A DNA stretch of 24,000 nucleotides from Spirochaetaceae bacterium (GCA_025355995.1 JANXYQ010000099.1:1-24000), one strand, 5' to 3'. Shown: positions 1-24,000, numbered from the stretch's first letter. Numbers and translations are program-made. Notes: a model not told the origin generated them from the sequence alone.

Positions 1-81
1 CTCGGGCGGCCGGCCTGACGGTCGGCGCTGCCCTCGCGGCCCCGCGCGATTCGGCTTGCGATGCCGCTCACGCGGCCTTCG

Positions 82-2863: not shown

Positions 2864-3015
2864 GCGTGATAGTATTCCTCAAGGTGAATACCCTCGACGC
2901 GGAGAAGGCCGAGGCTCAGCGCCTCGCGTTAGCTGAAAGCGGTCTGTAGCGAATTGACTTGCGCTCCATGCGAGATATACTCCTGGAAAGCAATAATAAA
3001 TTCCCAGGAGGAATC

Positions 3016-4206: not shown

Positions 4207-4253
4207 TTCGCCTTCGCTCCGGGCGGCATAACCCGATCGGCGCGGGCGGAGAG

Positions 4254-7371: not shown

Positions 7372-7403
7372 TTCCGCCGCAATCGCCGCGTATCATACGG
7401 CGC

Positions 7404-9727: not shown

Positions 9728-10383
9728 CCGAGCCGGTAGTCGGCCAGTTCGATCGGCTCGCGCGACTTCCCGACTCCTGGGACCACAACCGGCACTATCA
9801 ACGGGACATCCTGAAATTGGTCGGCAGGCGTCACGCCGCCCTCGACCTGGGCTGCGGCACCGGCGAGCTCACGCGGCAGCTCGCCCTGCGCTGCGGCTCG
9901 GTGGTCGGGGTGGACGCCTCCCCCTCGATGGTCGCGGAGGCGCGGAAGCGCAACTGGGGACTCAACATCGACTACGTCGAGGGGGACGCCGCGGCCTTCC
10001 TGGAGGGCAAGGCGGGCTCCTTCGACTGCATCACGAGCGTAGCGGCTTTCCATCATATGGACGAGTGGCGAATGCTCGGGCAATGCAAGACCGCCCTCGC
10101 CCCCGGCGGCATCCTCGTGGTCCTCGACCTGTTCAAGGCCGGCACCTTCGGGGACTATCTGGCATCGGCCGCCGCCGCCGCCCTTAATCCCTTCTACAGC
10201 CTCGTCAAAGGCGGACGCCTGGGACAAAGCCGCGAAGAGAGGGAAGCCTGGGCCGAGCACGCGGCCGATGACCGCCACAAGACCCTGGGCGAGCTCCGAG
10301 CCCTGGCTATCGGCGCCCTGGGCGACTGCTCGCTCGAGCGCAAGCTCTTCTGGCGCTACCTCCTGGCCTACGAGAAGCCCTAG
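9712..10383 (+). CDS. class I SAM-dependent methyltransferase
   Basis: Motif I LDLGCGTGELT, then VVGVDASPSMV, FDCITSVAAFHH, LAPGGILVVLD. The start is either ATG 9712 (after GAGGAGAGGG) or ATG 9724 (ATGA overlap with the ddl stop). The track start 9628 lies deep inside ddl. Confidence 0.8.
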   Translation: MDNGMTEPVVGQFDRLARLPDSWDHNRHYQRDILKLVGRRHAALDLGCGTGELTRQLALRCGSVVGVDASPSMVAEARKRNWGLNIDYVEGDAAAFLEGKAGSFDCITSVAAFHHMDEWRMLGQCKTALAPGGILVVLDLFKAGTFGDYLASAAAAALNPFYSLVKGGRLGQSREEREAWAEHAADDRHKTLGELRALAIGALGDCSLERKLFWRYLLAYEKP

Positions 10384-10610
10384 GCTTTGGGGGAGGCCTT
10401 GGACTCGCGGTACTGGGCGACCACCGCGAGGGCGTCCTCGAGGTCCTCTTCTTTCACTAGTACCTTGATGCCGCCCTCGGAGGGGAAGAAGAGGGGATAG
10501 ACCTCCATGAAATGCTCGGAACCGATCTCGGCCTCTATGCCGGTCGATTCTATGAGGCTCTTTACGACGAGGGCCTCGTCCTGGAACATGGTAGCGAACG
10601 CTTCGGCCAC
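10380..10610 (-). CDS. small DUF2007-like protein (putative signal-transducing fold)
   Basis: 76 aa. GTG 10610 lies 6 nt after GGAAGGAG. The pattern xxxDEALVVKSLIESTGIEAEI ... GIKVLVKEEDLEDALAVV resembles DUF2007. Assignment by eye. Confidence 0.55.
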   Translation of the reverse strand: MAEAFATMFQDEALVVKSLIESTGIEAEIGSEHFMEVYPLFFPSEGGIKVLVKEEDLEDALAVVAQYRESKASPKA

Positions 10611-10669
10611 GATGAACTCCTTCCGCCAGTCCCAATGGTACTGAATTCCCTCGATCTAGTCTCGCAGGC

Positions 10670-10675
10670 TATAAT
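10670..10675 (+). promoter_or_regulatory. perfect TATAAT -10 hexamer 8 nt upstream of the phosphoesterase ATG (possible leaderless transcript)
   Basis: TATAAT at 10670-10675 and ATG at 10684. No good -35 (TTCCCT with an 18-nt spacer), no TG extension and no RBS between them. Confidence 0.25.
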
Positions 10676-10683
10676 CGCGGCGC

Positions 10684-11217
10684 ATGCGCATCCTGGCCGT
10701 CTCCGACTCGCACCACGACATCTCCTCCCTCATCCCCGTCCTGCGGCGCTTCGCCCCCAAGGTAGACCTCATCGCCCACCTGGGGGACGGGGTCGCCGAC
10801 CTCGAGGAGGCCGCCGAGCGGGCTAAGTTGCGCCTGCCCCGCGTCGAGGGCGTGCGCGGCAACGGCGACTACGAGACCGAGCTCTGGCCCCGGCGCCTCA
10901 TCGGCAGCTCAGACAGGCCGATCCTCCTCCTCCACGGCCACCTCGAGGGCGTGAGCGACGACCTCGGCCGCATCGTGGTCGCCGCCGAGTCCTGCGGCGC
11001 GAAGCTAGTCCTATTCGGCCACACCCACCGCCCCTTCTTCGAGGAGTACCGCGGCATACTCGCCCTGAACCCGGGCTCCATCTCGCGCCCCCGCGGCCGC
11101 GACCGCCCGACCTTCGCCGTCGTCGACGTCCCCGACGAGGCCGAGCGCTATTTCGGCATCCAGTTCTACGAGGTCGGGACGGGGATCGGGAGGATCCGGG
11201 AGATAGACATCTACTGA
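10684..11217 (+). CDS. YfcE/MJ0936-family metallophosphoesterase
   Basis: 177 aa. Metal-binding motifs in the canonical order: AVSDSHHD, HLGDG, GNGD, LLHGH, FGHTHRP. Confidence 0.85.
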   Translation: MRILAVSDSHHDISSLIPVLRRFAPKVDLIAHLGDGVADLEEAAERAKLRLPRVEGVRGNGDYETELWPRRLIGSSDRPILLLHGHLEGVSDDLGRIVVAAESCGAKLVLFGHTHRPFFEEYRGILALNPGSISRPRGRDRPTFAVVDVPDEAERYFGIQFYEVGTGIGRIREIDIY

Positions 11218-11270
11218 CTCGATGCCTCGTCTGGCGGCGCGCGGGGCCTATCGCCGTCGAGGATCATGGC

Positions 11271-11639
11271 TTACGGCCTCTTGAGCGTGATCGGCTGCAG
11301 CCTCTGGACGCCCGCCTTTATGACGAGCTTCTGTTCCCACGCTACGGCGCCATCCTGGCCCAAGACCCTGAGGTAGTAGTCGCCCGGAGAAATGTTCGCC
11401 AAGGAGAAGCGCCCTAAGGAGTCGGTGAACACCGGCTTCGACCAGACCTGACCCTTCGTATCGAAGAGGTAGACGGAAAGTCCGACCTCCGGGTCGGGGA
11501 CGGATGCGTTCGGATTCTGCAGGAAGAAGGAGCCGGTAACCCTGGAGTCCTGGGCGAGGCAAGGGTACAGGCCGACGACGAAGAATAGCGCGATCGCGGC
11601 GGTTCGCGCCATCCAACCGGTTTTATTGGGCGTGGTCAT
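11271..11639 (-). CDS. small secreted protein with a carboxypeptidase-regulatory-like beta-sandwich (operon gene 9)
   Basis: 122 aa with a signal peptide (ARTAAIALFFVVGLYPCLAQ). TDSLGRFSLANISPGDYYLRV is typical of the CarboxypepD_reg fold. The ATG overlaps the upstream TGA (ATGA). Confidence 0.6.
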   Translation of the reverse strand: MTTPNKTGWMARTAAIALFFVVGLYPCLAQDSRVTGSFFLQNPNASVPDPEVGLSVYLFDTKGQVWSKPVFTDSLGRFSLANISPGDYYLRVLGQDGAVAWEQKLVIKAGVQRLQPITLKRP

Positions 11640-12313
11640 TGGTCACCTCCCGATATCGGCGGCAATGACGCCATCTCCGCCGTGACCGGAGGAAGGGGCG
11701 TCGGAGTGTTTTGGGCTTGCTGTTCGTGGGCGCTCGGGACCGGAGATATCTCGATCGGAGCCGGGAGCTTCGCGAAGGTGTCTTGAATCGGGATTAGGTA
11801 GGTCTTGCGCCAAAATGGATCGGTGCTAACCTCGAGCTGTTTCTTGTCCGGCTTTATGATGATCGTGAGCGTCACGGGATAGGTTTTCGGGGACTCGAAG
11901 AGAACGCTCTGCTGTTTGTCGCCGTTTCTCAGCGGGAAGCTGAAATTGCCGTCGCCTCGAACCGCCATCTCCGGGGGGTAGGCGTAGATCTTCTCGCCCG
12001 GGCCGACAAGGCCGAGGTAGCCGTCGATCCCCCCCAAGAGTACGGTCTTGGATTGGGGAAGCGGACGGTCGAGCCAAGCTAGATAGGCCGGCAGAGCGAT
12101 GGCGACGATGGCCGCGATGACGTAGAGGGCGACCGTCGGGACATTCGTCGAGATCTTCAGCTTGTCCGCCACCTCGATCCTGAGAGCCTCGGGTTGGCGA
12201 TCCGAAGCCAAGATGTCCCGGATCGTGTTGCCCCGACGCGACATCAGCCATGCAGCGATAGCGGCGAAACCCAGCCCGCACGCGAGACAAAGCACGAGAG
12301 ATAGTATGAACAT
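11636..12313 (-). CDS. hypothetical 2-TM membrane protein with a beta-rich ectodomain and Pro-rich tail (operon gene 8)
   Basis: 225 aa. ATG 12313 lies 6 nt after AGGAGG. Two hydrophobic helices (residues about 1-24 and 58-81), then a beta-rich domain (GDGNFSFPL...), then a PTPLPPV tail. Confidence 0.6.
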   Translation of the reverse strand: MFILSLVLCLACGLGFAAIAAWLMSRRGNTIRDILASDRQPEALRIEVADKLKISTNVPTVALYVIAAIVAIALPAYLAWLDRPLPQSKTVLLGGIDGYLGLVGPGEKIYAYPPEMAVRGDGNFSFPLRNGDKQQSVLFESPKTYPVTLTIIIKPDKKQLEVSTDPFWRKTYLIPIQDTFAKLPAPIEISPVPSAHEQQAQNTPTPLPPVTAEMASLPPISGGDQ

Positions 12314-12342
12314 CTTTTTCCTCCTTCGAACGCGCGTAGCCG

Positions 12343-12768
12343 CTAGAGCGTTCTGTAAATCCGCTTCGAGTCCATATTCCCCCTGCGTACGGTCAACGAG
12401 CCGCCCTCGATCGGATCGTAGGTCACCTTGCCGTCACGCCCCGCCACGAAATGGTGGAAATTCTTCGCGGGGTTGTACCAGCACTGGATCTCGAATTCGC
12501 CGTCTTTCGCGGCGTAATCCTTGTCCATCTTGCCTAGGAACTTGATTTTTTTGGGCGCGACGAAATCCACCAGTCGCTGCGGATCCTGCAAATAGCACTC
12601 GGCCTCGATCTCATGCGAGCTCAAGGCTTGATCGTAGATAGCCATGACCTTGGCGTGGCTCATCAGGGCTATTCCGAGGCGGCTCTCGAGCTGAAACAAG
12701 AGGGAGAGGAAATAGCAGCCGAAATGCCGGATGTCGTACGGAAAGGCGTCGTCGGTTTGATAGATCAT
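12343..12768 (-). CDS. hypothetical cytoplasmic protein with a papain-like Cys-His-Asp arrangement, C39-like peptidase or amidase candidate (operon gene 7)
   Basis: 141 aa with no signal peptide or TM segment. Cys18 in HFGCYF, His105/106 in NFHHFV, Asp118 in VTYDP. This order and spacing resemble C39-type papain-fold enzymes. ATGA overlap with the upstream gene. Confidence 0.5.
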   Translation of the reverse strand: MIYQTDDAFPYDIRHFGCYFLSLLFQLESRLGIALMSHAKVMAIYDQALSSHEIEAECYLQDPQRLVDFVAPKKIKFLGKMDKDYAAKDGEFEIQCWYNPAKNFHHFVAGRDGKVTYDPIEGGSLTVRRGNMDSKRIYRTL

Positions 12769-13385
12769 GGCGTCTTCTTTGCCGATTCCGCTTTCAGCGA
12801 CTCTATCGCCTTCGACCCGAAATAGAAGGCCACTACCATTTCGACGACCGCGATTAGGTGAGTGTAGGATTCCTCGATGGGCCTGCTGCTGAAAATATTC
12901 ACGCCCTCCATGACGGCGAAAAGGACGATTGCGGTCAGCGCGATGATACCCCTGATCGTATTTGGCGGGAGGCCGAAGGAATCGTTCTTGTAGGGATTCT
13001 CGGTCGGCTCGTCGATGGGCGGCGTCCCCGCGGTATCGGGGCTCGCTTTACTTTCGCTGACGAGCGTTTTCTTCAGTTCCTCGTACAGCTTCAATTGCGC
13101 TTTGCCCTTCGCGTAGATTTTAGGATATAGAATTTTCCATTCATGGTCGCTGAGGCCGAAGTTGACGGTATATCTATGGATTGCCCACGCGAGATACAGC
13201 ACGATCAGGACCAGCCAGGCCGCCAGGACGCTTCCTGCGATCATGAGCACCGCCGGATCGGCGTTGGCGCCATTCGTTGTCACCATTGTCACCTTTGGCA
13301 TCGTATTTTCGGGATCCACGGCGAAGGCCGACGCGCCGCACAGAATGAGCGAGAATAGGACAAAGACGCCTTGCTTGGTTTTCAT
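12765..13385 (-). CDS. hypothetical membrane protein: signal peptide plus three TM helices (operon gene 6)
   Basis: I prefer ATG 13385 (MKTKQGVFVLFSLILCGASAFA), preceded by GGAAGGTGA. The track's GTG 13394 would give a 4-nt overlap instead. TM helices lie at about residues 48-73, 148-166 and 178-193 of the 209-aa track ORF (GTG 13394 start), with a 75-aa charged loop between the first and second. Confidence 0.6.
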   Translation of the reverse strand: MKTKQGVFVLFSLILCGASAFAVDPENTMPKVTMVTTNGANADPAVLMIAGSVLAAWLVLIVLYLAWAIHRYTVNFGLSDHEWKILYPKIYAKGKAQLKLYEELKKTLVSESKASPDTAGTPPIDEPTENPYKNDSFGLPPNTIRGIIALTAIVLFAVMEGVNIFSSRPIEESYTHLIAVVEMVVAFYFGSKAIESLKAESAKKTP

Positions 13386-13390
13386 GCTTG

Positions 13391-13960
13391 TCACCTTCCC
13401 GTTAAGGCTTGGATGCCGAAGGCCAGCACAGCGCCTAGGGCGGTCCCGATCGAAGCTCCTAGCAGACCGAAGGAACTCTTGGAATTGTCGACCAATCCGC
13501 CCGCAACGCCACCCACGAGGCCGCAGGTGGCATAGGAAACCAGCCTGACTTTCTTCGCGTAGGCCAGGGCCGCGTCGGTATTGTCGGTCGCTCGCTTGAC
13601 GAGGGCCTCGGTGTCGGCTTGCTTTCGCAGCAAGTCGGCGAAGGCCTTATTCTGGATGTCGTTGAGTTCCGCATACTTTACGGAGAGCGCCTCGTAGCTG
13701 GATTCGAGCCCGGCGTAAATCGTTTTCTCTTCTTCGAGCGCATCGTTTATCGCGTCAAGCCTCCTTATCGTGCCGAGGAGGTCATTCGCGGTCTTTATAT
13801 TGACGACATACGCCAGGTTTCGATCATTGTAAAAGGACTGTCCCTTTTTTAGCCAAATGGATTCAGGCTCGTCGTCGGCATTGACGAACTTCTCCTGAGC
13901 CTGTACGGCCATGACGCCGACGGCGAGGCAAAGCGAAAGGACGAGTAAGGGCCCTTTCAT
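13391..13960 (-). CDS. hypothetical secreted coiled-coil protein with a C-terminal glycine-zipper membrane hairpin (operon gene 5)
   Basis: 189 aa. Signal peptide (LLVLSLCLAVGVMAVQA), heptad-like central region, C-terminal GLVGGVAGGLV ... GLLGASIGTALGAVLAFG. AGGAGA RBS and ATGA overlap. Confidence 0.6.
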   Translation of the reverse strand: MKGPLLVLSLCLAVGVMAVQAQEKFVNADDEPESIWLKKGQSFYNDRNLAYVVNIKTANDLLGTIRRLDAINDALEEEKTIYAGLESSYEALSVKYAELNDIQNKAFADLLRKQADTEALVKRATDNTDAALAYAKKVRLVSYATCGLVGGVAGGLVDNSKSSFGLLGASIGTALGAVLAFGIQALTGR

Positions 13961-14463
13961 AGGTTTCTCCTTTTTTTTACTCCTGCCAAGGCGTCCAAGG
14001 CGGCCAGCACCTCCTCGTCGCTCAATCCGGCGGAAAATTCACTGGGCTTCATCGCCTTCAACCTGATGATCTCGGCGTCGATGGCCTTCAGGCTCTCGTT
14101 CTTGCTCGCGATGTCGTCCTTGATCGCGTCGATCTCCTTGAGTTTCGCCGCAAGCTCCGTATCCCTCCATTGGACTATCCCCGCGACCTTGGCTTCGATG
14201 TCCGCGAGGTCTTTCTTGATCTTCTCGTTCTCCTCGGCTATCCGCTTCTCCTCCCCGCTTATGGGGAAGAGCTTGGAGCGCCAACCTCCGAGGCTCTTGA
14301 AGGCGTAGAGGATGGGCGCCAGGAGGCCGACCAGCCAAATAGGCACGTTGCTCTTCTTCAGCCCCTCCGCGAATGTCCTGATGTCGGGGACGAAAAAAGT
14401 CAGGGCGAACAAGGCGGCGCAGATTAGGGCGATGACGAGAATTATCAGCCACAGTTTTTTCAT
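13957..14463 (-). CDS. hypothetical 2-TM protein with a long C-terminal coiled coil (operon gene 4)
   Basis: 168 aa. Two N-terminal hydrophobic helices, then a charged heptad-rich region (EEKRIAEENEKIKKDLADIEAKV...). GGGAG RBS. Confidence 0.6.
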   Translation of the reverse strand: MKKLWLIILVIALICAALFALTFFVPDIRTFAEGLKKSNVPIWLVGLLAPILYAFKSLGGWRSKLFPISGEEKRIAEENEKIKKDLADIEAKVAGIVQWRDTELAAKLKEIDAIKDDIASKNESLKAIDAEIIRLKAMKPSEFSAGLSDEEVLAALDALAGVKKRRNL

Positions 14464-14486
14464 TCGGCTCCCTCGTTACCGAGAAA

Positions 14487-17400
14487 TCACGGATGCGGCA
14501 TCGGTCCCAGGCCCGCGATTTTCCGTATGTCGATCAGGGGTCCCAGAGGTATCTTGATTCCGCCGATGCCGATATCGAGTATTTGCGGCAAGCCCTGCGC
14601 CAGGTCTGCCTTCGATAGCTCGACCTCGTAGATCCCGTCGTACAGGTCCTTGACGATCGTCCCCGGCAGCTGGCTCAAGTCCACGGCCGTCGCGAGGCCG
14701 GGGCCGCAGGGCTGGCCGAGCTTGTCCTTCAATACGAGGGTCGCGACTGGATTGCCGTTCGCGCCTTGGGCGATGCTTACCGTGGTCTTCGCGGGATCGG
14801 GTATGGAGTGGACAGCGAGGCTGCCTACGACGACGCGCTGGAAGTTCCCGGTCTTCGAGCCGCCTCCGGAGATCCTCGCCTCGAGGTAGTAGCTGCCCGC
14901 CGTGTCGGTCGCGCATTGGGCGATTCCCGAGCCCTGAGCGGCGGAGACCGGAGTCGAGACTACGCTTTTGCGGTTGAGCAGGGGGACAGCGGCCGGGTTT
15001 TGACGGAGGATGCTGTAGGCGTCCAGCCGCGGGTCCAGCGCGGGGTCGAGCTTGGGCGCGGCCGCGGCCTTCGAGACGATCTGGGGCTGGGGTTTCGCTA
15101 TCGGATACTTCGCGAGGACTACGGCTGGCGACACGAAAGGTTTGACGACGCTCAGCGTAGAGGGGCGGAGGAATACGCCGCTCAGGCCCTTGCCAGCGGC
15201 TTGGACCGAGATCGGTGCCGATTCGCCCGTGCCCACGGCTTGGGCAGGGGTCTGCGCGACGAGGCGCAGTTCCGGGTCGCGGACCATGACAGCCAGGTAA
15301 TATTGGATCGCCTTGTCGGCATTCGGCTTCGCGCGCTCGATCTTCGCCGAGAATTGCCCCTGCGGACCGACCCCTACATAGCGCCATTCCGGAAGCTTGT
15401 CGATGAGCTTTTTCCATTTCGGGAAAAGCTTCGCGATCAGCCAATGCCAGAAACGCTTATGGGGCACGAGCTTGGGATAGGCATAGAGCGCGGAGCGAAA
15501 GCCCGCCCGCGCGTCGGAGGAGGCCGGGACCAGGGTGACTCCGCCCTGGTCCGCCAGCGAAACCTTCAGGTCCTCGCCGCCGAGCCAGGTAAGGTACAGA
15601 TAGATCGAGGTAATGCTCTTGTTCATGAGCGCCGGCACCGAGACCGAAGCCGAGCCTGCGGCGAGGGTGTCGCTCTTGATCGTCGCGAATTGGATCGCCT
15701 TGTCGCTCTTCAGGGTCGTCAAGCCGGCGAGGAGGTAGCTGTGGATATCGGGGAACATCGGCGGATCCTCGTAATGAGTCCCCCCGGTCCCGGTCGAGAT
15801 CGCCATAAGATTCGCCTGGAACAAGGATCCCGCCCCGTCGGCGATGCCTATCGTATCGACGGGAATTCCCGTATCGGGATACTTGTACTTTTTCTCGTCC
15901 GTGGGGAGGGTCAGGCCGGTTAAGCCGGCGCAATTCGATACTCCCCCATCGAAGTCGTAGCAGACCGTAGGCGGGCTTCCAGGATTGGTGAATACGAGAT
16001 TCTTCACGCCTCCGACATCCTCGAAATAGGCAAAGGGGCGTCTGTTCTGCAGGCCGTCCGTGAAGAGGATCACCTTGCCCTTAGTCGCCGCGGGAACGAT
16101 GGCCTTTATCGCCTGAATCGCGGCGGCCAAGCCGGCGCCCATGGCGGTAGACCCGCTGGCCGCTATCGGCGTCAGGGCGGCGGACAGCTGCGCTTGGACC
16201 GCGTCGCTCATCGACGGCTTGAAGACCATCGTCCCGCCCGTGTCGAAGCAGGACAGGATGTGGTAATCGGTCGAGTAGGTAAAGGCTCCCACGACATCGC
16301 CCCAGGCGAGGATTCCCTTCATCAGGAGGGCGGTATTCAAGACCGCGTTTTTCAGGTGCTGGATCTTCGGGGTACCGCCGTCGTCGTCTCCCATGCTCCC
16401 CGAGACGTCCAGCACCAGGACCACCGACTGCTTGGCGCGGCAGGCGTAGACAAGAGGCGCGGATGCCGTATCGAAAGGATTCCCGGCCAGGTCGGCGATG
16501 GTGGAAGCAGCCTTCGGCCGTATCTTAACAAGATACGTTTCATCCGCCCCAGTCGCCGCGGGAAGATCGCCGGAGATCGTCAGCGTGACTTCCGTCCAGG
16601 TCTTGCCGCCGTCCATTATTTTTGCGGCCGACGCTGTTGCTATGCTCAGTCCCGCGATGGCGCTTCCCGCATCATCCGTGATCTCCCAATTTGCGGGTAC
16701 GTCTCCATTGTTGATCTCTTCGGTAAATGGAACGAGGATCGAGCCGAAGGCGCTCACGGGTCTGCCGTTGACGAGATGGTTTACGCTGTCTGGGTAGGGG
16801 GAGATGGCGTTGAAGGCAGCTGTCGAGGGCGAGGTGAAGTCGATCTTGGGGGCGGTCTTGTCGAGTTTGAAAGCGATAGTCGTTGCCGATACCGCGTTGC
16901 CCTCGGTGTCGGTTATCCCGGAAATAACCAGTTGGTATGCCCCCTCGGCGAAGCCGCCGGCGGGAGGCGAAAGGCTACGTATCTCTTTTCCGGCCGCGGC
17001 GAGGTAGCTCGAGGCTAGAAGCATTCCCGCAGGATTGACCGTGAACGAAGAAACCGTCATGCCTTCGCAACTAAGCGAATAATTCGAAGTATCCCAAGCG
17101 CCGTATACTTTCTCCGAGAAAGTAATGACGATATCCGAAAGTTCCTTTACAAAGCTGCCATTGGCTGGAACGACACTCGTTATCGATGGAGCGGATGAAC
17201 GCATATTGGTGATTCTGCCGGCGATGAAGGATCTCAGATTCGTTTTAGTCACGGGACTCCAATCGAAGTTCGTCAGGTTGTTTACCGATCCTGACGCCGC
17301 TTGACCCGCGTTGTTATCCGAATCGGAGATTTCGTATTGGTCCGCTACTTTCCCCGTAGTATCCAGGAGGTATCCCCACCAGAATTCCGAGCCTGCAGTT

Positions 17401-17828
17401 TGGCTTCCGGCATAATCGAGAAGATGACTCTGCGCATAGGCTTCATTCGTAGGGCTTGGCGTATTATCCCATGCCGCGTCCATCAGCACGGCTATTGAAG
17501 CATCGAGGCTTCCACCTCCTTTATCGTCTATCCAGGCCGTGCTGACCGGGCCGGAATACGTTGTCGTTCCGATTGTCTCGGTATCTGTTTTATAGTTGAA
17601 AACGACGGCGACTATCTTCACGGCTGCTTTCGTCGCGGCGTCGAAGGAACTTTGTAGCGCCGAAAGCTCATTCATCCAGCCCCAGCCCCTAATAATATCC
17701 ACAAAGGAAAATATGATGATCTTGCCGGAATAATCACTGAGGTTGGCTGGATTATTTGTGGAATAATCGGTCAGGCCCGAAGGATAATCAAGGAAGGATC
17801 CGCCGATCGTTGCCTGCGATAATGGCAT
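14487..17828 (-). CDS. 1113-aa vWA (MIDAS) domain protein with a thioredoxin-like N-terminus lacking CxxC and SbsA/Big_5-type Ig-like domains; no signal peptide (operon gene 3)
   Basis: ATG 17828 lies 6 nt after AGGAGG, and no in-frame start codon lies upstream within the open frame (the track reports the longest ORF). Complete MIDAS: DVSGS (16395-16409), ASGSTAMG, ILFTDG. The vWA domain spans about 15729-16430. Ig-like segments include APSITSVVPANGSFV...ITFSEKV and ...ADLAGNPF. Confidence 0.85.
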   Translation of the reverse strand: MPLSQATIGGSFLDYPSGLTDYSTNNPANLSDYSGKIIIFSFVDIIRGWGWMNELSALQSSFDAATKAAVKIVAVVFNYKTDTETIGTTTYSGPVSTAWIDDKGGGSLDASIAVLMDAAWDNTPSPTNEAYAQSHLLDYAGSQTAGSEFWWGYLLDTTGKVADQYEISDSDNNAGQAASGSVNNLTNFDWSPVTKTNLRSFIAGRITNMRSSAPSITSVVPANGSFVKELSDIVITFSEKVYGAWDTSNYSLSCEGMTVSSFTVNPAGMLLASSYLAAAGKEIRSLSPPAGGFAEGAYQLVISGITDTEGNAVSATTIAFKLDKTAPKIDFTSPSTAAFNAISPYPDSVNHLVNGRPVSAFGSILVPFTEEINNGDVPANWEITDDAGSAIAGLSIATASAAKIMDGGKTWTEVTLTISGDLPAATGADETYLVKIRPKAASTIADLAGNPFDTASAPLVYACRAKQSVVLVLDVSGSMGDDDGGTPKIQHLKNAVLNTALLMKGILAWGDVVGAFTYSTDYHILSCFDTGGTMVFKPSMSDAVQAQLSAALTPIAASGSTAMGAGLAAAIQAIKAIVPAATKGKVILFTDGLQNRRPFAYFEDVGGVKNLVFTNPGSPPTVCYDFDGGVSNCAGLTGLTLPTDEKKYKYPDTGIPVDTIGIADGAGSLFQANLMAISTGTGGTHYEDPPMFPDIHSYLLAGLTTLKSDKAIQFATIKSDTLAAGSASVSVPALMNKSITSIYLYLTWLGGEDLKVSLADQGGVTLVPASSDARAGFRSALYAYPKLVPHKRFWHWLIAKLFPKWKKLIDKLPEWRYVGVGPQGQFSAKIERAKPNADKAIQYYLAVMVRDPELRLVAQTPAQAVGTGESAPISVQAAGKGLSGVFLRPSTLSVVKPFVSPAVVLAKYPIAKPQPQIVSKAAAAPKLDPALDPRLDAYSILRQNPAAVPLLNRKSVVSTPVSAAQGSGIAQCATDTAGSYYLEARISGGGSKTGNFQRVVVGSLAVHSIPDPAKTTVSIAQGANGNPVATLVLKDKLGQPCGPGLATAVDLSQLPGTIVKDLYDGIYEVELSKADLAQGLPQILDIGIGGIKIPLGPLIDIRKIAGLGPMPHP

Positions 17829-17838
17829 GCATTTCCTC

Positions 17839-20163
17839 CTATTCGAACGCGCCTATCGACCAGTATCCCGTGCTCGATCGCGGATTCCCATCCATATCCG
17901 TGGAAAAACCTTCAGTGGAAAGGTTCAGCCCCGGTCCGGATACCGTAGCCTTAAGCGTGCTCGTCGCTTGCAGGTGATAGTCGGTTCCCGAGACGAATGA
18001 CGGGGTGATCGCGAGATTTTTCCAATACCCGAGCGTATGAGTGCCTTCCTGGGTAATCACGTTCGTAACGAGATCGATGACCCGAACTACCGCGGGAGTC
18101 GCGTCATAATCGCGATAGTATCCGTTAGAAGCCCCAACGGAGATATAAAAATCGTTATTGTCAACGGCGGCCGGGTTTGAGCTACTGTTGTATTCGTACA
18201 GCCCCCATGCCGAAGTATTGCTTCCGTTGAAGAGGATATTATTCTTCACGGTGGTGTTGCCCGCATAGCGGTTATAAATGCAATACGCCGTCGCTCCCTG
18301 CCCACAGTAGATGTCGTTATTGTAAATCTTAGGCGATACATACGACATGATTCCGTAGGTAGTAGTCGTGCTGTTCGTATCCCCGCCGCCGAGTATCACG
18401 TTGTTTCGAATCATTGATACCGCCGTGGTACCCGAGGCTGCCGTGCAAAAGATGCCCCCGGCGGTCGCGCCGGATGCCCCTGTAGAATGAGTCGTTGTGT
18501 TAAGATAGTTTCCTTCGATTATAGACACGACCGTTGTCGGATTCGTCGGGTTTCCGATCACCTTAATGGCCCAGGATTCTCCGGAATTGTTATAGCCAGG
18601 CTCGATCGTGTTTTTCCTGATTACGGGAGCGCTTTGATAAACATAGATGCCGAAATACCTCGATCCGGAGTATGTCACTTCCGATAGCGTTCTTCCGAGG
18701 ATGATGTTATTGCTGATCGTCGCCGCCCCAGCGGAGAATATGCCCGCATTGTAATCTCCTCGGCCCATCTTGATCGTGAAACCATCCAATACCGCGGAAG
18801 TTGTGACGGACGAGGCGCAATCGACAGGCCGCTTTGGGTCAGCCTCGCTTCCTCCTGATGTCGTAGTGTTGCTGTCCACGATCGTCGTCGTATTATCCGT
18901 GGAATTCCTTGCCGACCAATCGATTGGCGAGGCTATCAATGGAGGATAGCCCCCTAAAACGGATATTCCATCTTTCATCGAGACGCGATTCGCTGGGCTA
19001 TTGCCGTCCATCGAATATGTCGCTTTCGAAACCCTCACCTCACAGGGCCGCGCCGAAGAATACTTCGTATCCGCATAGTTGACGGCGGCGGTTATTGAGG
19101 CGAATGGCTTTTGCGCGCCGTTATCGTCAGAGCTCGCTGAACCTGTGCCCGTCTCAGAAACGCAGGCCCCATAGAAAACGTTATAGGTCGCCGTCGCCGT
19201 GACAATCGATATCCCGAATTTAGTCTTCCCACTTATGGTTAGGTTTTGATCGTAGGTAGTACCCGTGCTGCGAGGCCATAGTGTGGAGGGTTTAACGGGC
19301 AAGGAAACGTGGCTTGAGTCCCAATCGCCCGGTACGGGAGTGGCGGGAGTCATCGTTCCGCCAGTGAATGAAATGGATGCGGGATCCATCTCGAAATCAA
19401 AACCGATAGTAAGCCGTTCATGGCCCGTTATTACGTTAGTGGTCATTGTTGGGAAATGCGCGGTACGGGAGTTGATAGCTACGCTTAGCGCCATGGATAC
19501 CGCGTTCACAAGTCCCTTGTCGTTCTTTGCCCAGGCATAGACCGTGTGCGTTCCCGAGGCGAGAGATACCGTATAACTCGTGGGAGCGGCGCTCAGGTTC
19601 ACATCGGCCGCCGCTGGCACCGACGAGCTCTCGTTTACGAGCCAGCCGACGATCGAGGAAGCTCCCGCCCCGAAACCGCTCGTCGAGAGGTTGAAGGTCA
19701 CCGTCGGGTCGTCCGTCGGAGTAGCGCTCGTCCTATTGAATGTGTCGATGACGGGCGATGCGTACGAGGTAATCGTCACCGTCGCCGATTTCGCGTCGCT
19801 CACCAGGCCGGGGGCGCTTTTTCCCCAGGCGTAGAGGGTCTTTAAACCGAGGCCCGCGGAGACAGTATAGGTGGCGGGCTTGGCCGCCGACCAGCCGGGG
19901 TCCGCGGCCGCCGGCTTGGCCGGGGCTTCGTTGACGAGCCAGGCGCTCACGTCGGTGGAACCTTCGAGGGTGACCGGGACGAAGTCGTCGTAACGGACGT
20001 CGGGACCGATGACGAAGACGGTGATCGTCGGGATGACGCTCGAGGCGTGAAACGCCGAGACGTCCTTCTTGACCACGTCGGTGAGGCCGTTGCTGCACGA
20101 GGTGGCGGACGCGGCGAGCAGGAAGGCCGCTATGCGGACGGCCGCTTTCATGATCGGATTCAT
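17839..20163 (-). CDS. 774-aa putative lipoprotein: two Ig-like modules plus a right-handed parallel beta-helix (DUF1565/pectate-lyase-like fold) (operon gene 2)
   Basis: The signal ends in AASATS-C, a non-canonical lipobox. Beta-helix rungs repeat (ISNNIILG, IRKNTI, IRNNVILGG, IYNNDIY, VKNNILFNG). PFASITAAVNYA and the terminal DMDGNPR...WSIGAFE are typical of this fold. ATGA overlap with the upstream gene. Confidence 0.8.
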   Translation of the reverse strand: MNPIMKAAVRIAAFLLAASATSCSNGLTDVVKKDVSAFHASSVIPTITVFVIGPDVRYDDFVPVTLEGSTDVSAWLVNEAPAKPAAADPGWSAAKPATYTVSAGLGLKTLYAWGKSAPGLVSDAKSATVTITSYASPVIDTFNRTSATPTDDPTVTFNLSTSGFGAGASSIVGWLVNESSSVPAAADVNLSAAPTSYTVSLASGTHTVYAWAKNDKGLVNAVSMALSVAINSRTAHFPTMTTNVITGHERLTIGFDFEMDPASISFTGGTMTPATPVPGDWDSSHVSLPVKPSTLWPRSTGTTYDQNLTISGKTKFGISIVTATATYNVFYGACVSETGTGSASSDDNGAQKPFASITAAVNYADTKYSSARPCEVRVSKATYSMDGNSPANRVSMKDGISVLGGYPPLIASPIDWSARNSTDNTTTIVDSNTTTSGGSEADPKRPVDCASSVTTSAVLDGFTIKMGRGDYNAGIFSAGAATISNNIILGRTLSEVTYSGSRYFGIYVYQSAPVIRKNTIEPGYNNSGESWAIKVIGNPTNPTTVVSIIEGNYLNTTTHSTGASGATAGGIFCTAASGTTAVSMIRNNVILGGGDTNSTTTTYGIMSYVSPKIYNNDIYCGQGATAYCIYNRYAGNTTVKNNILFNGSNTSAWGLYEYNSSSNPAAVDNNDFYISVGASNGYYRDYDATPAVVRVIDLVTNVITQEGTHTLGYWKNLAITPSFVSGTDYHLQATSTLKATVSGPGLNLSTEGFSTDMDGNPRSSTGYWSIGAFE
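19471..20031 (-). repeat. two tandem ~90-aa Ig-like modules inside the 774-aa gene
   Basis: Shared pattern WLVNE(A/S)..PAAAD....A.P(A)T(S)YTVS...G..T(L/V)YAW(G/A)K...GLV in residues about 45-132 and 137-231. Confidence 0.7.
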
Positions 20164-22304
20164 TGTCCCTCCCAGAAAACCGCCTTTTGCCCGGCTGTCG
20201 CGTCGGAAGCGCGTTCGACGCCGGACGCGGCCTCGGCGCCCAGGTAGGCGAACTTCTGCGCCGCTCCCGAGTCGAGGGCCTTGGCCTTGGCGTAGAGGTC
20301 GGAGGCCGTGGAGGAGTCGTTCAGCTCGTAGGCCGCCCGCGCGACACCCAGGAGTATCCTCGGGTTGGAAGGATCGAGTCTGACCGCCTTTTCGTAGTAA
20401 TCGCGCGAGCTCTTCCAGTCGCCCCTGAGGTAGGCGACGTTGCCCAGGTTAACCAACACCGGCGCGTAGGGCTTTCCCACGATGGCCTTGTTGAACTGGG
20501 CGATCGCCTCGTCGAAGCGGCCATAGCGGGCGTAGAGGATCCCGTATCTGTTGAGCGCGTCGCGGTCGGTCTTGTTCCTCACGAGAGCCGCCTCTATCGT
20601 TTTCGCCTGCGCCCTTATCTCGGCTTCGATGAAGGCATTCAGCTCCTTCGAAAAGGCGGCGATCGTCTTGTCCTTGGGCGGCATGGAAATCTCGGCGCCG
20701 CTGCCCGGCAAGCCTACGGCCTCGAAGACGTCCCAGGCCTTGTGCATGGGATAGAAGGCGGCGGCGCCTTTGGCGTCGTTGTCGCGCCATTCCCTCGCGC
20801 CCGTTCTCCACGCGTGGAAGAAGCCGTTCGTGATGTCGGTGATCTCGATGGGCACCCAGGCGACATCGCCCTTGAGGATGAGGTCGTCGGTCGACGAGAA
20901 TACCCGCTTCGCCTCCACGGGGCTCAGGTCCAGGGCGAAGGCCATGTAGATGTGCCCCGGTATGGTGATGAAGGCGGTATCCACGCCGATGGATTCGAGG
21001 AGGGCGCAGTTCAGGATCGAAAGGTCGTCGCAATCGCCGCCCTTGTAGGCGAGGGTCTGTCGGGGGAATTGGAGGAAATCAGCGCCGCTCTTGCGCGTCG
21101 ATTGCTCGGCGTACGAGGACTTGGGGTCGACGATGTAGGTTATGCCGTAGAGGGCAAGGGCCTCGTGCAGGGCGACGGCGGCGGCGAGCTTGTCGTCCAC
21201 TCCGCGGAGGGCGAAGTCGCGCAGGAAGCCCGATACGTTCTTCGAGAAGGAGAGGACGGCCGGGTCCTTCGCGGTGACGAAGGCGGCGGCGCGGCGGTCG
21301 TCGTCCCAGGTCATGGCGTTGCGGTCGAGTATCCGCATGGATTCGACCTTCTGCGCGCGGTAGGGCGTCTCGGACATGCGATAGTCGATCGATACTTCCG
21401 CGGCCGCCTTGGTGGCCTCGGTGACGCCTAGGACGCTGTCGTTGAACAGGCCGAAGACGGATACCTGCGCTGTCGAGCCGGCCTCTATGCGCCCCATCGA
21501 GGTGGTCTTCGGCGCGTCCATGTATTCCTTTATGAATAGGCTGATCGTAGCGTCCGAAACGGCCTGGCGCTCGTTGTTCTTGACCCGTACTATGCCGACG
21601 GGATGGTCGTCGTAGTATTTTCGGAAGACGGGGAACACGGATTCGAGCTCTACCCCGTCTATGGAAAGACCCTTGCCGGGAGGAGCGACCTTGAACCCTT
21701 TGATGAGCTCAACGTCTATAGGCTGGGCCGAGCGAATTTGGTTCTGGCGGGACTCCTTGCCCGAGAGAAATACCGTCGAGCCCAGATAGACGCCCGCGGT
21801 CAGAGGCAGGCCAAAATAGTCGCTCACGGTTCCGCCCAGATTGATGCCGAGGGTCGGCGAAATGAGGAGGTCGACGCCGAGACCTCCCGTCGCGTAGAGG
21901 CTCGACCCCGAATCGGAGGTGGATTGGTTCTTGAAACCATAGTTGTAGCCCGCCCCCCCGAAGGCTTCCATCCTAAAGCGCGGAGCGAAGGCGAAGGTGT
22001 AGCCCGCGTCCGCCGCCAGGGAAAAAAGCGATAGGGAGTTCCCTCCGACATAAGGGCTGTAGGCGTACTCGAAGGCGCCTCGCAGGAAAAAGCCCCCGGG
22101 CTGGCTCAGGTCGTATTGGAGGTATAGGTTGCTCGAGCCGCCGATGGAATAGTCGCTTGCGCCCGATCCTATCGGTATTTGCAGAGTCGGGGCGATGCCG
22201 AGGGAGAGGGCTGCGGACGAGGGGGCCAGGTTCCCCTGCGCGATGATAGACGCGAAAGCCGTAATGTGGAGATAAGTAATCAGAAAATGCCTTTTTTTCA
22301 TCAT
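20160..22304 (-). CDS. 714-aa tripartite protein: N-terminal OM beta-barrel-like domain, transglutaminase-like Cys-His-Asp/Glu core, C-terminal TPR repeats (operon gene 1)
   Basis: Signal peptide. Residues about 25-182 show alternating Gly/aromatic beta-strand patterns like 8-stranded OMP barrels. TGase-like core: GGDC(425)DD, PGH(451)IYMAF, WVPIE(487)ITD. TPR region: LNRYGILYARYGRFDEAIAQFNKAI ... YYEKAVRLDPSNP. The second ATG (22301) has the better GGAGG spacing. Confidence 0.8.
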   Translation of the reverse strand: MMKKRHFLITYLHITAFASIIAQGNLAPSSAALSLGIAPTLQIPIGSGASDYSIGGSSNLYLQYDLSQPGGFFLRGAFEYAYSPYVGGNSLSLFSLAADAGYTFAFAPRFRMEAFGGAGYNYGFKNQSTSDSGSSLYATGGLGVDLLISPTLGINLGGTVSDYFGLPLTAGVYLGSTVFLSGKESRQNQIRSAQPIDVELIKGFKVAPPGKGLSIDGVELESVFPVFRKYYDDHPVGIVRVKNNERQAVSDATISLFIKEYMDAPKTTSMGRIEAGSTAQVSVFGLFNDSVLGVTEATKAAAEVSIDYRMSETPYRAQKVESMRILDRNAMTWDDDRRAAAFVTAKDPAVLSFSKNVSGFLRDFALRGVDDKLAAAVALHEALALYGITYIVDPKSSYAEQSTRKSGADFLQFPRQTLAYKGGDCDDLSILNCALLESIGVDTAFITIPGHIYMAFALDLSPVEAKRVFSSTDDLILKGDVAWVPIEITDITNGFFHAWRTGAREWRDNDAKGAAAFYPMHKAWDVFEAVGLPGSGAEISMPPKDKTIAAFSKELNAFIEAEIRAQAKTIEAALVRNKTDRDALNRYGILYARYGRFDEAIAQFNKAIVGKPYAPVLVNLGNVAYLRGDWKSSRDYYEKAVRLDPSNPRILLGVARAAYELNDSSTASDLYAKAKALDSGAAQKFAYLGAEAASGVERASDATAGQKAVFWEGQ

Positions 22305-22610
22305 GCCCTCCGGACGAGCGGCAAGTGTTATTGAGATAGATCCTTACACATACCATATCACGGTTTTTAGCGAACACCTAAGTAATGTTTTGTTTATCCG
22401 AATCGTCAGCGTAATTTCCTAATCGAACGCCGATCTTGTCAAAAGAAAAGAAAGTATAACTCGGATTCCGGTGTTCGCGGGCGCGATTCGCATGGGTGCA
22501 AAATTATAAATAAATTATTCCAGTATTAATATTTACGAGAAAAAACCCATAGGATCCCTGTGCCGCCGGTCGATGTGGTGTTTACTGTTCCCGTGCAAAC
22601 GGCAACGGCG
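22305..22610. promoter_or_regulatory. divergent AT-rich control region for the minus-strand nine-gene operon and the plus-strand rseC/rnfC genes
   Basis: 306-nt gap. Line 22501-22560 is 25% GC against 65-78% in the flanks. Several TATAAT-like strings occur (TATAAC 22455, TATAAA, TATTAAT), but I could not pair any with a properly spaced -35. Confidence 0.4.
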
Positions 22611-22942
22611 ATGGAACAGTTTCAAATCGGAGTCGTGGCGGCGATCGAGGGCGCCTACGCGCGCATCAGGGTCTCTGCCCAAGGCGAATGCTCCGAGTGC
22701 GGCGCCTGCGGCGGATTGGCACTGACGTTACTCGCGCATTACGAGATAGGCGCCGTTCCCGGAGACAGGGTCCGCATCGAGAACTCCGCCAAGGGCATGA
22801 TCGCGGTTGCCTTCGTGCTGTTCGCCGTCCCGACGCTCGCCGCGCTCGCGGGCGCCGGCACTGGGGATCGGATCTTCCCTCGGCGGCGGCATCGGCGGCG
22901 GCTATCCGGATCATCGATATCGTGGAGGGCGGATGTCGCTGA
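22611..22942 (+). CDS. RseC/MucC-family (Rnf-associated, SoxR-reducing-system-type) small membrane protein with a probable frameshift
   Basis: ATG 22611 gives MEQFQIGVVAAIEGAYARIRVSAQGECSECGACGG...VPGDRVRIENSAKGMIAVAFVLFAVPTLAALAGAG, with the cysteine cluster, GDxV and a TM helix as in RseC. This frame never reaches a stop inside the window, so it is absent from the ORF track. The frame ending at TGA 22940-22942 is a different one. Confidence 0.45.
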
Positions 22943-23463
22943 AGATAGGCCGAGGGGTCCATCCCTCGGGGAACAAGCGGATCACGGAATACCAGCCTTC
23001 CGAGCGCATGCCCGTGCCCGAGAGGCTGACGATCTCGCTGCGCCAGCACTTGGGCGAGGCCGCGGCCCCGATCGTCGCTCGAGGCGATCGCGTCTACAAG
23101 GGACAGCCCATCGCGGCTTCCGAGAATCCGCGGGTACCCCCCATCCATGCCTCCACCTCCGGCACGATTTCCGAGATCGGCGTCGGCGCCCATCCTCAGT
23201 TCAGCTCCGCGCCTTTCATCGCGATCGCGTCGGATGGGCTGGATCAGTGGCTGCCCGGCCAGCTCCAGGCCCGAGATTGGCGGACTCTGTCCCCAGCCGC
23301 CATAGTCGCGGCCATCAAGGAGGCGGGCATCGTCGGCATGGGAGGCGCCGCCTTCCCGACGCACGTGAAGCTCTCCCCGCCGGCGGAGTCCCCCCGAAGG
23401 TTCGCGAGATTGCCGAGGTTGATGAGGGCGGGCAGGTATTCCTCTTTCGCCACGATCGCTTGA
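22933..23463 (+). CDS. rnfC: RnfC/RsxC N-terminal fragment; family similarity ends near 23385 and the remaining 26 codons are antisense to the neighbouring gene
   Basis: ATG 22933 after GGAGGG. MSLKIGRGVHPSGNKRIT..., LRQHLGEAAAPIVARGDRVYKGQPIA, IHASTSGTISEI and AGIVGMGGAAFPTHVKLSPP match the RnfC N-terminal domain. The NADH-binding and 4Fe-4S regions that should follow are absent. Confidence 0.75.
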   Translation: MSLKIGRGVHPSGNKRITEYQPSERMPVPERLTISLRQHLGEAAAPIVARGDRVYKGQPIAASENPRVPPIHASTSGTISEIGVGAHPQFSSAPFIAIASDGLDQWLPGQLQARDWRTLSPAAIVAAIKEAGIVGMGGAAFPTHVKLSPPAESPRRFARLPRLMRAGRYSSFATIA

Positions 23464-24000
23464 AATTGCCTCTCGGCCTGGTCGAGCTGTCCATAGCGGG
23501 CGTAGAGGACGCCGAGCTTGTTCATCGTCTTCGAGCTGCCGCTCTGCTTGGCGAGGGCTGCCTTCAGGTCCGCCACCCTCGGCCCGATCTCGCGGTCGAC
23601 GAAGCCGGAGACCTCGTCCTTGTAGCGCGAGACTACGGCGGATTCAGCCGGTTGCGAAATGGCCGCGGGAGTCCCGGGCAGGCCCACGGGCTCGAAGGCC
23701 TTCCACGCGTCGGCGAGGGGGTAGAAGTTGGCCTGGCCCTTGGCGTCGTTCTCGCGCCACTCCTGGGCGGCGGTCGCCCAGGCATCGAGGAAGCTCGCCC
23801 TCGTTTGGGTGATCTCCACGGGGACCCAGGCCCTTCCCGCCTTGAAGATCAGATCCTCCGGATGAAGGAAGCTCTTGCGCGCGTCCGAATCCTCCGTCTC
23901 CAGGGCGAAGGCCATGTAGATGTGGCCGGGCACGGTGATGAAGGCGGTGTCCACGTTGAGCGACTCCAGCAAGGCGCAGTACAGTATGGAAAGGTCGTCG
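23244..24000 (-). CDS. paralogue of the 714-aa TGase-like/TPR gene; 5' end lies outside the window and the 3' end is truncated or chimeric
   Basis: Reads ...DDLSILYCALLESLNVDTAFITVPGHIYMAFAL...WVPVEIT...LGVLYARYGQLDQAERQF...LINLGNLANLRGD. It is collinear with residues 426-629 of the 714-aa protein at about 50% identity by eye. After LRGD (23388) the ORF runs 48 more codons through the antisense of rnfC. Confidence 0.7.
   Translation of the reverse strand, partial: DDLSILYCALLESLNVDTAFITVPGHIYMAFALETEDSDARKSFLHPEDLIFKAGRAWVPVEITQTRASFLDAWATAAQEWRENDAKGQANFYPLADAWKAFEPVGLPGTPAAISQPAESAVVSRYKDEVSGFVDREIGPRVADLKAALAKQSGSSKTMNKLGVLYARYGQLDQAERQFQAIVAKEEYLPALINLGNLANLRGDSAGGESFTCVGKAAPPMPTMPASLMAATMAAGDRVRQSRAWSWPGSH
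23388..24000 (-). repeat. dispersed direct paralogous repeat of 20418-21030 (offset 2970 nt)
   Basis: Identical 24-mer cagggcgaaggccatgtagatgtg at 20931-20954 and 23901-23924. Identical 15-mer ggtgatgaaggcggt nearby. The offset is the same at both ends of the aligned block. Confidence 0.8.

Follow-up and report, generated by a model that had tools for sequence, protein, structure and literature searches.

A nine-gene envelope cluster in a Spirochaetaceae genome: a possible fusion of three modules and a candidate function for DUF261

Layout of the cluster

The window analysed here is a stretch of 24,000 nucleotides from a Spirochaetaceae bacterium (GCA_025355995.1, JANXYQ010000099.1:1-24000), in which nine minus-strand open reading frames (ORFs), called g1 to g9 below, fill positions 11271-22304. 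An earlier interpretation made from the DNA alone (the sequence-only reading) considered these genes a self-contained envelope operon, either a module for exporting, anchoring or cross-linking a large adhesin-like protein or a domesticated device for lysis or release. The coordinates and junctions on which that proposal was built were reproduced in our ORF table, and the domains it had assigned gene by gene were essentially right when compared with Pfam, NCBIfam and hydropathy. Nevertheless, the comparisons do not support a single new system of nine genes; what the locus does reveal is a pair of conserved modules, both apparently undescribed, and a candidate role for the protein family DUF261. 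The cluster and its upstream region comprise the following features (lengths in amino acids, aa):

22305-22610, no strand: AT-rich divergent intergenic region of 306 bp, 44% GC against 55-74% elsewhere
20160-22304, minus strand: g1, 714 aa, with signal peptide, outer-membrane barrel, Ig-like beta-sandwich, transglutaminase-like core and TPR
17839-20163, minus strand: g2, 774-aa lipoprotein whose gene has an ATGA overlap with g1, with a helix after the lipidated Cys (post-Cys helix), two Ig-like repeats and a parallel beta-helix
14487-17828, minus strand: g3, 1113 aa, with degenerate thioredoxin-like N-domain, Big_5 Ig domain, vWA-MIDAS domain and C-terminal beta-rich domains
13957-14463, minus strand: g4, 168 aa, with one or two N-terminal transmembrane segments and a coiled coil of ~100 aa
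13391-13960, minus strand: g5, 189 aa, with signal peptide, small beta N-domain, coiled coil and C-terminal glycine-zipper segment (weak PF05433 match)
12765-13394, minus strand: g6, 209 aa (206 from a downstream ATG), with three transmembrane segments
12343-12768, minus strand: g7, 141 aa, DUF261 papain-like protein with Q4, C18, H106 and D118, no signal peptide
11636-12313, minus strand: g8, 225 aa, with two transmembrane segments, a conserved RRGNTIRDIL loop and an ectodomain of ~155 aa
11271-11639, minus strand: g9, 122 aa, small secreted CarboxypepD_reg-like beta-sandwich (weak match), ATGA overlap with g8

As computed from the ORF coordinates, the junctions from g1 to g9 measure -4/+10/+23/-4/-4/-4/+29/-4 nucleotides. 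If the cluster is divided according to the synteny described below into module A (g1-g3), module B (g4-g7) and module C (g8-g9), the -4 overlaps are five within-module junctions (g1/g2, g4/g5, g5/g6, g6/g7 and g8/g9), the largest spacers (+23 and +29) are both between-module boundaries, and g2 and g3 are separated by +10. For g6, the alternative junction of +5 agrees with a separate Logan assembly, in which the gene is called at 206 aa. Upstream of all nine starts there is a GGAG-type Shine-Dalgarno sequence, which is weakest at g7.

The region at 22305-22610 is the single AT-rich region that had been proposed upstream of the cluster. From its position, it presumably serves as promoter or 5′ region both for g1-g9 (minus strand) and for an rseC-like ORF and a truncated rnfC (plus strand); a consensus promoter scan of this interval gave nothing convincing, and an Rfam search that included it matched no RNA family. 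Inside the cluster, matches to the promoter consensus (2, with 4.1 expected from shuffles) and to the terminator consensus (8, with 12.3 expected) are not above chance. Judging from their spacing, the nine genes are probably co-transcribed.

Searches with Pfam, NCBIfam, PADLOC and PHROGs likewise agreed with the earlier statement that no ATPase, secretin, usher, sortase, integrase or phage structural gene is found here. In particular, PADLOC and PHROGs returned nothing meaningful for the nine proteins (no defence model and no lysis or structural family), and neither a tRNA nor att-like repeats were detected in the 24-kb window. From g2′ to g9, the sequence is 100% identical to that of an independently assembled Logan contig (L003), so its contiguity is not an artefact of one assembly. 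The GC content at third codon positions (GC3) is lower in the cluster (0.67-0.83) than in the flanking housekeeping genes (0.83-0.95). Additionally, there is a patch of particularly low GC3 at ~16600-19600 (0.56-0.64, against 0.79-0.84 in the remaining parts of g2 and g3). It takes in the last three-quarters of g2 and the first third of g3, which suggests that a segment across the g2/g3 junction was recently exchanged.

Three modules and their relatives

Elsewhere, synteny holds only within g1-g2 (sometimes with g3), g4-g5-g6 and g8-g9, each of which occurs without the others, and the full nine-gene combination was seen only in this genome. Given that restriction, the overlaps within modules and the spacers between them, we favour, with slightly better than even confidence, the interpretation that the cluster is a lineage-specific fusion of three envelope modules, tightly packed and probably co-transcribed, in a Spirochaetota genome. 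By the condition that the sequence-only reading had set for its own refutation, the idea of a self-contained nine-gene module is refuted in part, as the full set is not syntenic elsewhere and synteny is conserved within the three sub-modules only. The closest syntenic genome (L007, JGI 3300048576, a 1.3-Mb contig) has the same flank as the window at 5030-22304, with a response regulator, a histidine kinase, CreD, Ddl, a methyltransferase and a metallophosphoesterase. In that contig, g1-, g2- and g3-like genes lie in the opposite orientation, followed by an unrelated convergent gene, and g4-g9 are not present; module A consequently needs neither B nor C. Relative to L007, the locus in the window is inverted and extended.

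The first protein of module A, g1, combines a small outer-membrane beta-barrel at aa ~17-180 (weak OMP_b-brl match, aa 17-163, E 3e-4) with C-terminal TPRs that match Pfam strongly. Between them lies the transglutaminase-like region, whose Transglut_core match is weak (16.8 bits, below the Pfam cutoff of 23). Residues C425, H451 and E487 are invariant across 30 sequences, and an AF2 model of residues 188-560 (pLDDT 78) contains a beta-sandwich followed by an alpha/beta core, for which Foldseek found transglutaminases 2/3 and protein 4.2 with probability 1.0 (E ~6e-3, ~115 aligned residues). A sequence search of the PDB with g1 returned TPR proteins only.

The g1 family is large, with more than 1382 proteins of ~710 aa that share 39-63% identity over 91-100% of their length, and the named homologues are labelled Spirochaetes, Spirochaetales or Spirochaetia. 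When one genome per species was scanned, 565 stretches were found to encode g1 homologues, often several per genome; for instance, the metagenome-assembled genomes (MAGs) CAZKGO01 and CAYGXO01 carry four g1-type loci each. In the set of loci L010-L089, copies within one genome each have a different lipoprotein partner, as in L027, L040, L043 and L088, which belong to one MAG. A few matches to the family are on short contigs assigned to Planctomycetota, WOR-3 or Pseudodesulfovibrio, perhaps through mis-binning.

The partner of g1 was surveyed in the 70 loci that have a complete 3′ end and enough downstream sequence, counting partner ORFs of at least 150 aa. In 65 of these 70, a same-strand ORF starts at the stop codon of the g1 homologue; 54 of the 65 partners overlap that stop, mostly by 13 or 16 nucleotides, and 60 have a lipobox-like Cys. 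The partner proteins vary widely in length (156-1739 aa) and in content, as 49 of them match 72 Pfam families (Ig-like, PKD, CARDB, FG-GAP, RCC1, NHL and FGE-sulfatase, among others). In their alignment, the lipobox Cys is the sole invariant column. Downstream of it there is an amphipathic pattern, with N at +2 in 24/59 partners, L at +4 in 27/59 and at +5 in 31/59, and L, I or V at +8 and at +12 in 42/59 each; the consensus, beginning with the lipidated Cys, reads C-x-N-x-L-L-D-x-V-K-x-D-V.

This pattern is fitted by g2, where the lipobox Cys is found in SC-SNGLTDVVKKDV. Its family profile matches a parallel beta-helix structure (PDB 9rx2, E 9e-5) and one homologue matches Beta_helix, while a PDB sequence search with g2 itself gave nothing useful. 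In the closest loci, L005/6, L007 and L010, true g2 homologues (32-40% identity) follow the g1 homologue. Taking family membership to mean full-length homology together with an overlapping downstream lipoprotein gene that encodes a post-Cys helix, both features are found in g1-g2. Judging from these comparisons, the g1-lipoprotein cassette is widespread and multi-copy in Spirochaetota, and g1-g2 is one copy of it; no description of a family that couples such a barrel/transglutaminase-like/TPR protein with a lipoprotein was found. We propose that g1 would be an outer-membrane-anchored periplasmic protein made in a fixed ratio with its lipoprotein, and that it may recognise the post-Cys helix and dock, process or present its partner at the outer membrane. 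The ectodomain of the partner would be the variable part, adhesin- or enzyme-like across the family and a putative beta-helix in this locus.

In g3, the product of the third gene of module A, VWA_2 scores 41.2 bits (cutoff 27) and the MIDAS motif DxSxS...T...D is complete, with 'LDVSGSM', 'GSTAMG' and 'LFTDG' in the translation. The protein has no hydrophobic N-terminal segment and no possible upstream in-frame start. Among 5.8 billion proteins, g3 had no full-length homologue besides itself; its N-domain recurs only in the third genes of L005/6, L007 and L010, all of which also encode signal-less giants, giving these loci of the closest clade a g1-g2-g3N triad in common.

The small proteins were searched exhaustively by phmmer with the concatenated small proteins as the query. 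This gave separate families for g4, g5, g6 and g8 and a sparser one for g9, with no protein matched by more than one family. In module B, the g6 family conserves an NPY..FGLPPGT(V/I)RG loop and an AFYFGS helix, and the g6 domain forms the N-terminal part of many longer proteins. Among 51 homologues, Pfam finds Muramidase in 9/51, DUF5675 in 5/51 and Peptidase_M15_3 in 1/51. PHROGs place nine in endolysin families and 14 in phrog_30036, which in P0145 and P0149 corresponds to a lysozyme-like domain at the C-terminus. According to the positive-inside rule and transmembrane counts, the C-terminus of g6, and hence the hydrolases fused to its homologues, would be in the periplasm. By contrast with these fusions, g6 itself ends at 209 aa, right after the membrane domain, where it overlaps the start of g7. 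In its closest homologues, P0145 and the L100 gene, a linker follows the membrane domain, and P0145 also has a hydrolase-like domain. The 'short' homologues P0151 and P0159 were considered as split forms and rejected; they are uninformative in this respect because their genes are cut by contig ends.

Adjacent genes in the order g4-g5-g6 occur in L100, L101-103, L104, L110 and the P0145 contig, and hidden Markov models (HMMs) recognise the same families in L100, L101 and L104. The triad encodes proteins of 153, 156 and 670 aa in L101-103, the last with a muramidase, and of 172, 189 and 739 aa in L104, the last with an M15 domain. Three of these units are located as follows:

L101, 2537-5510: g4-g5-g6 triad
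L104, 8903-12220: g4-g5-g6 triad
L110, 1760-3718: g4-g5-g6 triad

Their neighbours are ordinary chromosomal genes, such as those for citrate synthase, QueG, a sigma-54 activator and a patatin. A Por_Secre_tail domain near the L101 triad suggests that the unit may also occur outside Spirochaetota. No match to g4 or g6 was obtained by tblastn against GenBank phages, and no member of the g4 family was found in IMG/VR viral contigs; the full-family alignments of g4 and g8 are too divergent for scans of viral contigs. The triad is thus a conserved chromosomal unit whose function is apparently undescribed. In our proposal, g4 would be an inner-membrane coiled-coil protein and g5 a secreted one, anchored by the glycine zipper.

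The last gene of module B, g7, belongs to Pfam PF03196 (DUF261), with 60.9 bits against a gathering cutoff of 26.1 over profile positions 4-136 of 137. Relatives are scarce, since only 18 were found in a large protein database, and Q4, C18, H106 and D118 are invariant in an 18-sequence alignment of g7 and its metagenomic relatives. The AF2 model (pLDDT 95) has one strong fold match, to an unnamed viral protein, with a template-modelling (TM) score of 0.83, and weak ones to Tae4 cell-wall amidases and a phage C39 peptidase (TM 0.25-0.45) and to a CdiA-CT. PDB searches with the g7 sequence gave nothing useful, and with the DUF261 profile no match. All DUF261 relatives from other genomes with a readable context belong to phage contigs or to Borrelia cp32-like plasmids. 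In Borrelia, tblastn matches BppB/DUF261 genes at 30-34% identity, and the gene for BppB has bppA, ssb and bppC as its plasmid neighbours. Against GenBank phages, tblastn with g7 found no match.

Six phage contigs encode g7 relatives (L001 and L002 from assemblies, L105-L108 from IMG/VR). Where the flanks are readable, the DUF261 gene is accompanied by a small transmembrane/coiled-coil protein and by one to three proteins of 55-84 aa with two transmembrane segments. In four contigs the neighbour has a signal peptide, a coiled coil and a C-terminal transmembrane segment, and one such protein weakly matches an Rz-like spanin PHROG. The make-up of the cassette is kept despite different neighbours, with portal and prohead protease genes in three contigs and an adjoining large ORF, a putative tail fibre, in two. 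The cassettes delimited are:

L001, 7139-8431: phage DUF261 cassette
L002, 3243-4592: phage DUF261 cassette
L106, 5680-7329: phage DUF261 cassette
L107, 5412-7533: phage DUF261 cassette
L108, 5609-6632: phage DUF261 cassette

HMMs of g4, g5, g6 and g8 had no significant match in these contigs, and none of the other eight proteins of the window cluster matches there; the likeness between the window and the phage cassettes is therefore architectural only. Because DUF261 lies beside holin-like and spanin-like genes in the six phage contigs, it is a candidate phage wall-cutting enzyme and, by extension, Borrelia BppB becomes a candidate spirochaete-phage endolysin. No published function for g7 or BppB was found in literature searches, those on DUF261 and on a cp32 endolysin gave nothing pertinent, and no paper proposing DUF261/BppB as a spirochaete-phage endolysin was found. 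In the cluster, g7 is a candidate peptidoglycan hydrolase that would replace the domain missing from g6.

Module C was traced through g8, which has homologues on ten metagenome contigs (L090-L099), with a g9 homologue directly after in 7/10; the -4 overlap of the two genes recurs in L098 and L099. In these two, the gene before the pair is on the opposite strand, and housekeeping genes (e.g., for an MFS transporter and GroEL) lie around the pair. No homologues of g4-g7 were found beside the pairs of L090-L099, no g8 relatives were found in IMG/VR, nor by tblastn in GenBank phages, and the g8 profile gave only weak matches in the PDB, to designed Ig proteins. Module C is a conserved membrane/secreted pair that may have been carried along.

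On both sides of the cluster, the window contains other genes, of which the following were delimited:

22611-22929, plus strand: rseC-like ORF, followed on the plus strand by an N-terminal fragment of rnfC
82-1389, minus strand: likely real gene, GC3 0.90, N-terminus resembling a secreted solute-binding protein
1580-2863, plus strand: likely real gene, GC3 0.89
4254-4961, minus strand: likely real gene, GC3 0.84

The longest ORFs listed within 61-4961, at 61-1365 (plus), 1501-2949 (plus) and 4173-4889 (plus), are probably antisense shadows according to codon-position GC. At the opposite end of the window, the minus strand of 22927-24000 encodes a second g1 paralogue, which runs off the edge. 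It is 47% identical to aa 426-632 of g1 and includes a stretch of 102 nucleotides with 84% DNA identity. Both this paralogue and the rnfC fragment lose homology at ~23385, and the truncation of two convergent genes at one point suggests either a real rearrangement or an assembly chimera.

Known systems and competing explanations

The position of a lysis-cassette-like, putatively wall-opening unit behind genes for bulky envelope proteins recalls two precedents. One is that large envelope machines have dedicated peptidoglycan hydrolases. The other is the Type 10 secretion system (T10SS), a domesticated lysis cassette represented by Serratia ChiWXYZ, Salmonella TtsA/STM0015-16 and the system of Yersinia entomophaga. 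In such systems, the genes for the holin, the peptidoglycan hydrolase and the cargo protein are found in close proximity (PMC10109510). The cluster resembles both lysis cassettes and the T10SS in having a small set of membrane proteins and a putative wall-cutting enzyme beside a large protein without a Sec signal (g3, as possible cargo), and in its coiled-coil envelope proteins of spanin-like architecture. The fusion of g6-domain homologues to muramidase, M15 and endolysin PHROG families, as well as the phage cassettes that contain g7 relatives, extend the likeness to lysis cassettes. By contrast, no sequence match links the cluster to a holin, a spanin or a characterised T10SS hydrolase, and the enzyme here is a DUF261 papain-like protein, a putative hydrolase. 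In addition, the g4-g6 triad occurs in chromosomal contexts and was not found in the two phage collections searched, and g5 ends in a glycine-zipper segment instead of a lipid anchor. The suggestion of a domesticated lysis or release device gains support for g4-g7 from the endolysin-type fusions and the phage relatives of g7. T10SS membership is not established, since g6 is a putative holin, g7 is a putative hydrolase, and L007 keeps g3-like genes without the unit.

Other parts of the cluster recall different systems. As in Slam of Neisseria, a gene for a TPR outer-membrane protein adjoins one for a lipoprotein with a variable surface-type ectodomain, on which the former presumably acts, with several pairs per genome. 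Nevertheless, Slam has N-terminal TPRs and a DUF560 barrel, while in g1 a small barrel at the N-terminus precedes a transglutaminase-like core, with the TPRs at the C-terminus; Pfam does not match DUF560 in g1, and there is no homology between g1 and Slam. We know of no Slam counterpart of the post-Cys helix of the partners, and the resemblance would be a functional analogy only. The ProA family (NCBIfam NF058533) aligns at its positions 14-291 with residues 238-508 of g1 (E 4e-14), that is, with the beta-sandwich and transglutaminase-like region, but ProA is 1903 aa long and g1 reaches 51 bits against a cutoff of 1500 bits, so that only a domain is shared; literature searches on ProA gave nothing relevant on the role of this domain. 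Anti-phage defence was also rejected as an explanation, as there is no meaningful PADLOC match and the ProA match reflects the shared domain only. Finally, g7 is a genuine DUF261 member that shares the Gln, Cys, His and Asp residues of Borrelia BppB, although the latter is encoded on a prophage-like plasmid beside bppA, ssb and bppC, and the former within a chromosomal envelope cluster.

In our best reading, genes for surface proteins would be co-expressed with a lysis-cassette-like, peptidoglycan-opening unit, g4-g7. A cellular triad with a membrane-tethered hydrolase may have lost its own hydrolase domain and acquired the phage-type g7 in trans, and module B would then open the cell wall locally, so that bulky module A products could be installed or released more easily. 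What was observed is the layout of the ORFs, together with the homologies, their modular distribution and the domain fusions of homologues; co-transcription, the biochemical activities and the functional links between modules are what we infer. Several points weigh against this interpretation. L007 keeps g1-g2-g3-like genes without g4-g9, and the signal-less g3 could be cytoplasmic. The role of g1 is deduced from its architecture and the coupling of its gene, with Transglut_core below the cutoff, and the single operon from spacing. In module B, g6 matches no holin family and g4 and g5 match no spanin family; the activity of g7 on peptidoglycan is putative, and its fold matches to Tae4 and C39 are weak. 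Moreover, g7 does not appear to be a simple like-for-like replacement, because it lacks a signal peptide and the hydrolases on g6 homologues are predicted to be periplasmic.

A more integrated alternative is that all nine genes form one export system of the T10SS type, in which g6 would be the holin, g7 the hydrolase and g4/g5 spanin-like proteins, releasing g3 (and perhaps g2) to be anchored at the surface by g1. The same strand and tight packing of the nine genes agree with this proposal, as does the position of the g3 gene, 23 nucleotides upstream of the holin-like/hydrolase-like/coiled-coil set. Nevertheless, we consider it unlikely, as signal-less g3-like third genes exist in L005, L007 and L010 (in L007 without g4-g9), no gene for a large cargo adjoins the g4-g6 triads of other contigs, no homology was found to known holins, spanins or T10SS hydrolases, and the combination is confined to this genome. 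Conversely, g4-g7 might be a decaying lysis remnant of a prophage, the nine genes having become neighbours by an accident of rearrangement and sharing no function. The spot is indeed rearranged, being inverted with respect to L007 and adjoined by the truncated g1 paralogue and the truncated rnfC, the GC3 of the cluster is below that of its flanks and, apart from the Borrelia plasmids, all g7 relatives with an examinable context are in phage contigs. A remnant would be hard to reconcile with nine intact ORFs that keep Shine-Dalgarno sites and overlapping stop and start codons, with the chromosomal contexts of relatives, or with the lack of phage relatives of g4 and g8 (IMG/VR and GenBank) and of g6 (GenBank). 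Integrase, tRNA, att-like repeats and phage structural genes are likewise missing from the 24-kb window; beyond the nine proteins, which match no lysis or structural PHROG, Pfam detected no such gene in ten plus-strand flank ORFs. A decayed prophage is thus rather improbable.

Two further explanations have very little in their favour. Chimeric assembly could account for the nine-gene combination, and the suspicious breakpoint at ~23385, with rnfC′ and the g1 paralogue both truncated, might be taken as a sign of it, but the g2′-g9 identity in the Logan contig and the conserved synteny of the g1-g2 and g2-g3 links in relatives make this very improbable. The co-occurrence of a vWA-MIDAS protein (g3) and a transglutaminase-like domain (g1) in one cluster also recalls Bat/aerotolerance operons and MoxR-DUF58-vWA-TgpA loci. 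This possibility, which the sequence-only reading had discounted, is ruled out for practical purposes, as neither a MoxR AAA+ ATPase nor a DUF58 protein nor a BatA-D match is present among the nine proteins or anywhere else in the window, and the partners of the g1 family are lipoproteins, not vWA proteins.

Implications for spirochaetes and their phages

The fusion of the three modules may be a one-off, which would limit the importance of the nine-gene combination as such. At its most ambitious, the interpretation of the cluster would make g1-type proteins a spirochaete-specific machinery for surface lipoproteins, working by helix recognition and by transglutaminase-like processing or tethering through the Cys as a counterpart of Slam or sortase without homology to them; here, a recruited holin-like/DUF261 wall-opening unit would export the signal-less vWA adhesin by what would be a new envelope export route, and DUF261 would be the endolysin of spirochaete phages. 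We regard this full version as speculative and rather doubtful.

The modules matter in their own right. Module B appears to represent a conserved chromosomal triad in which a membrane domain, accompanied by two coiled-coil proteins, would tether peptidoglycan hydrolases, and it looks like a cellular relative of lysis cassettes. DUF261, including BppB of the Borrelia cp32 type, can be put forward as a specific candidate for the enzyme with which spirochaete phages cut the cell wall. To our knowledge, the sorting and display of spirochaete surface lipoproteins are poorly understood. The g1-lipoprotein pair, a large, multi-copy and apparently undescribed gene pair of free-living Spirochaetota that joins an outer-membrane transglutaminase-like/TPR protein to lipoproteins sharing a short post-anchor helix, could bear on how these proteins are sorted or displayed.

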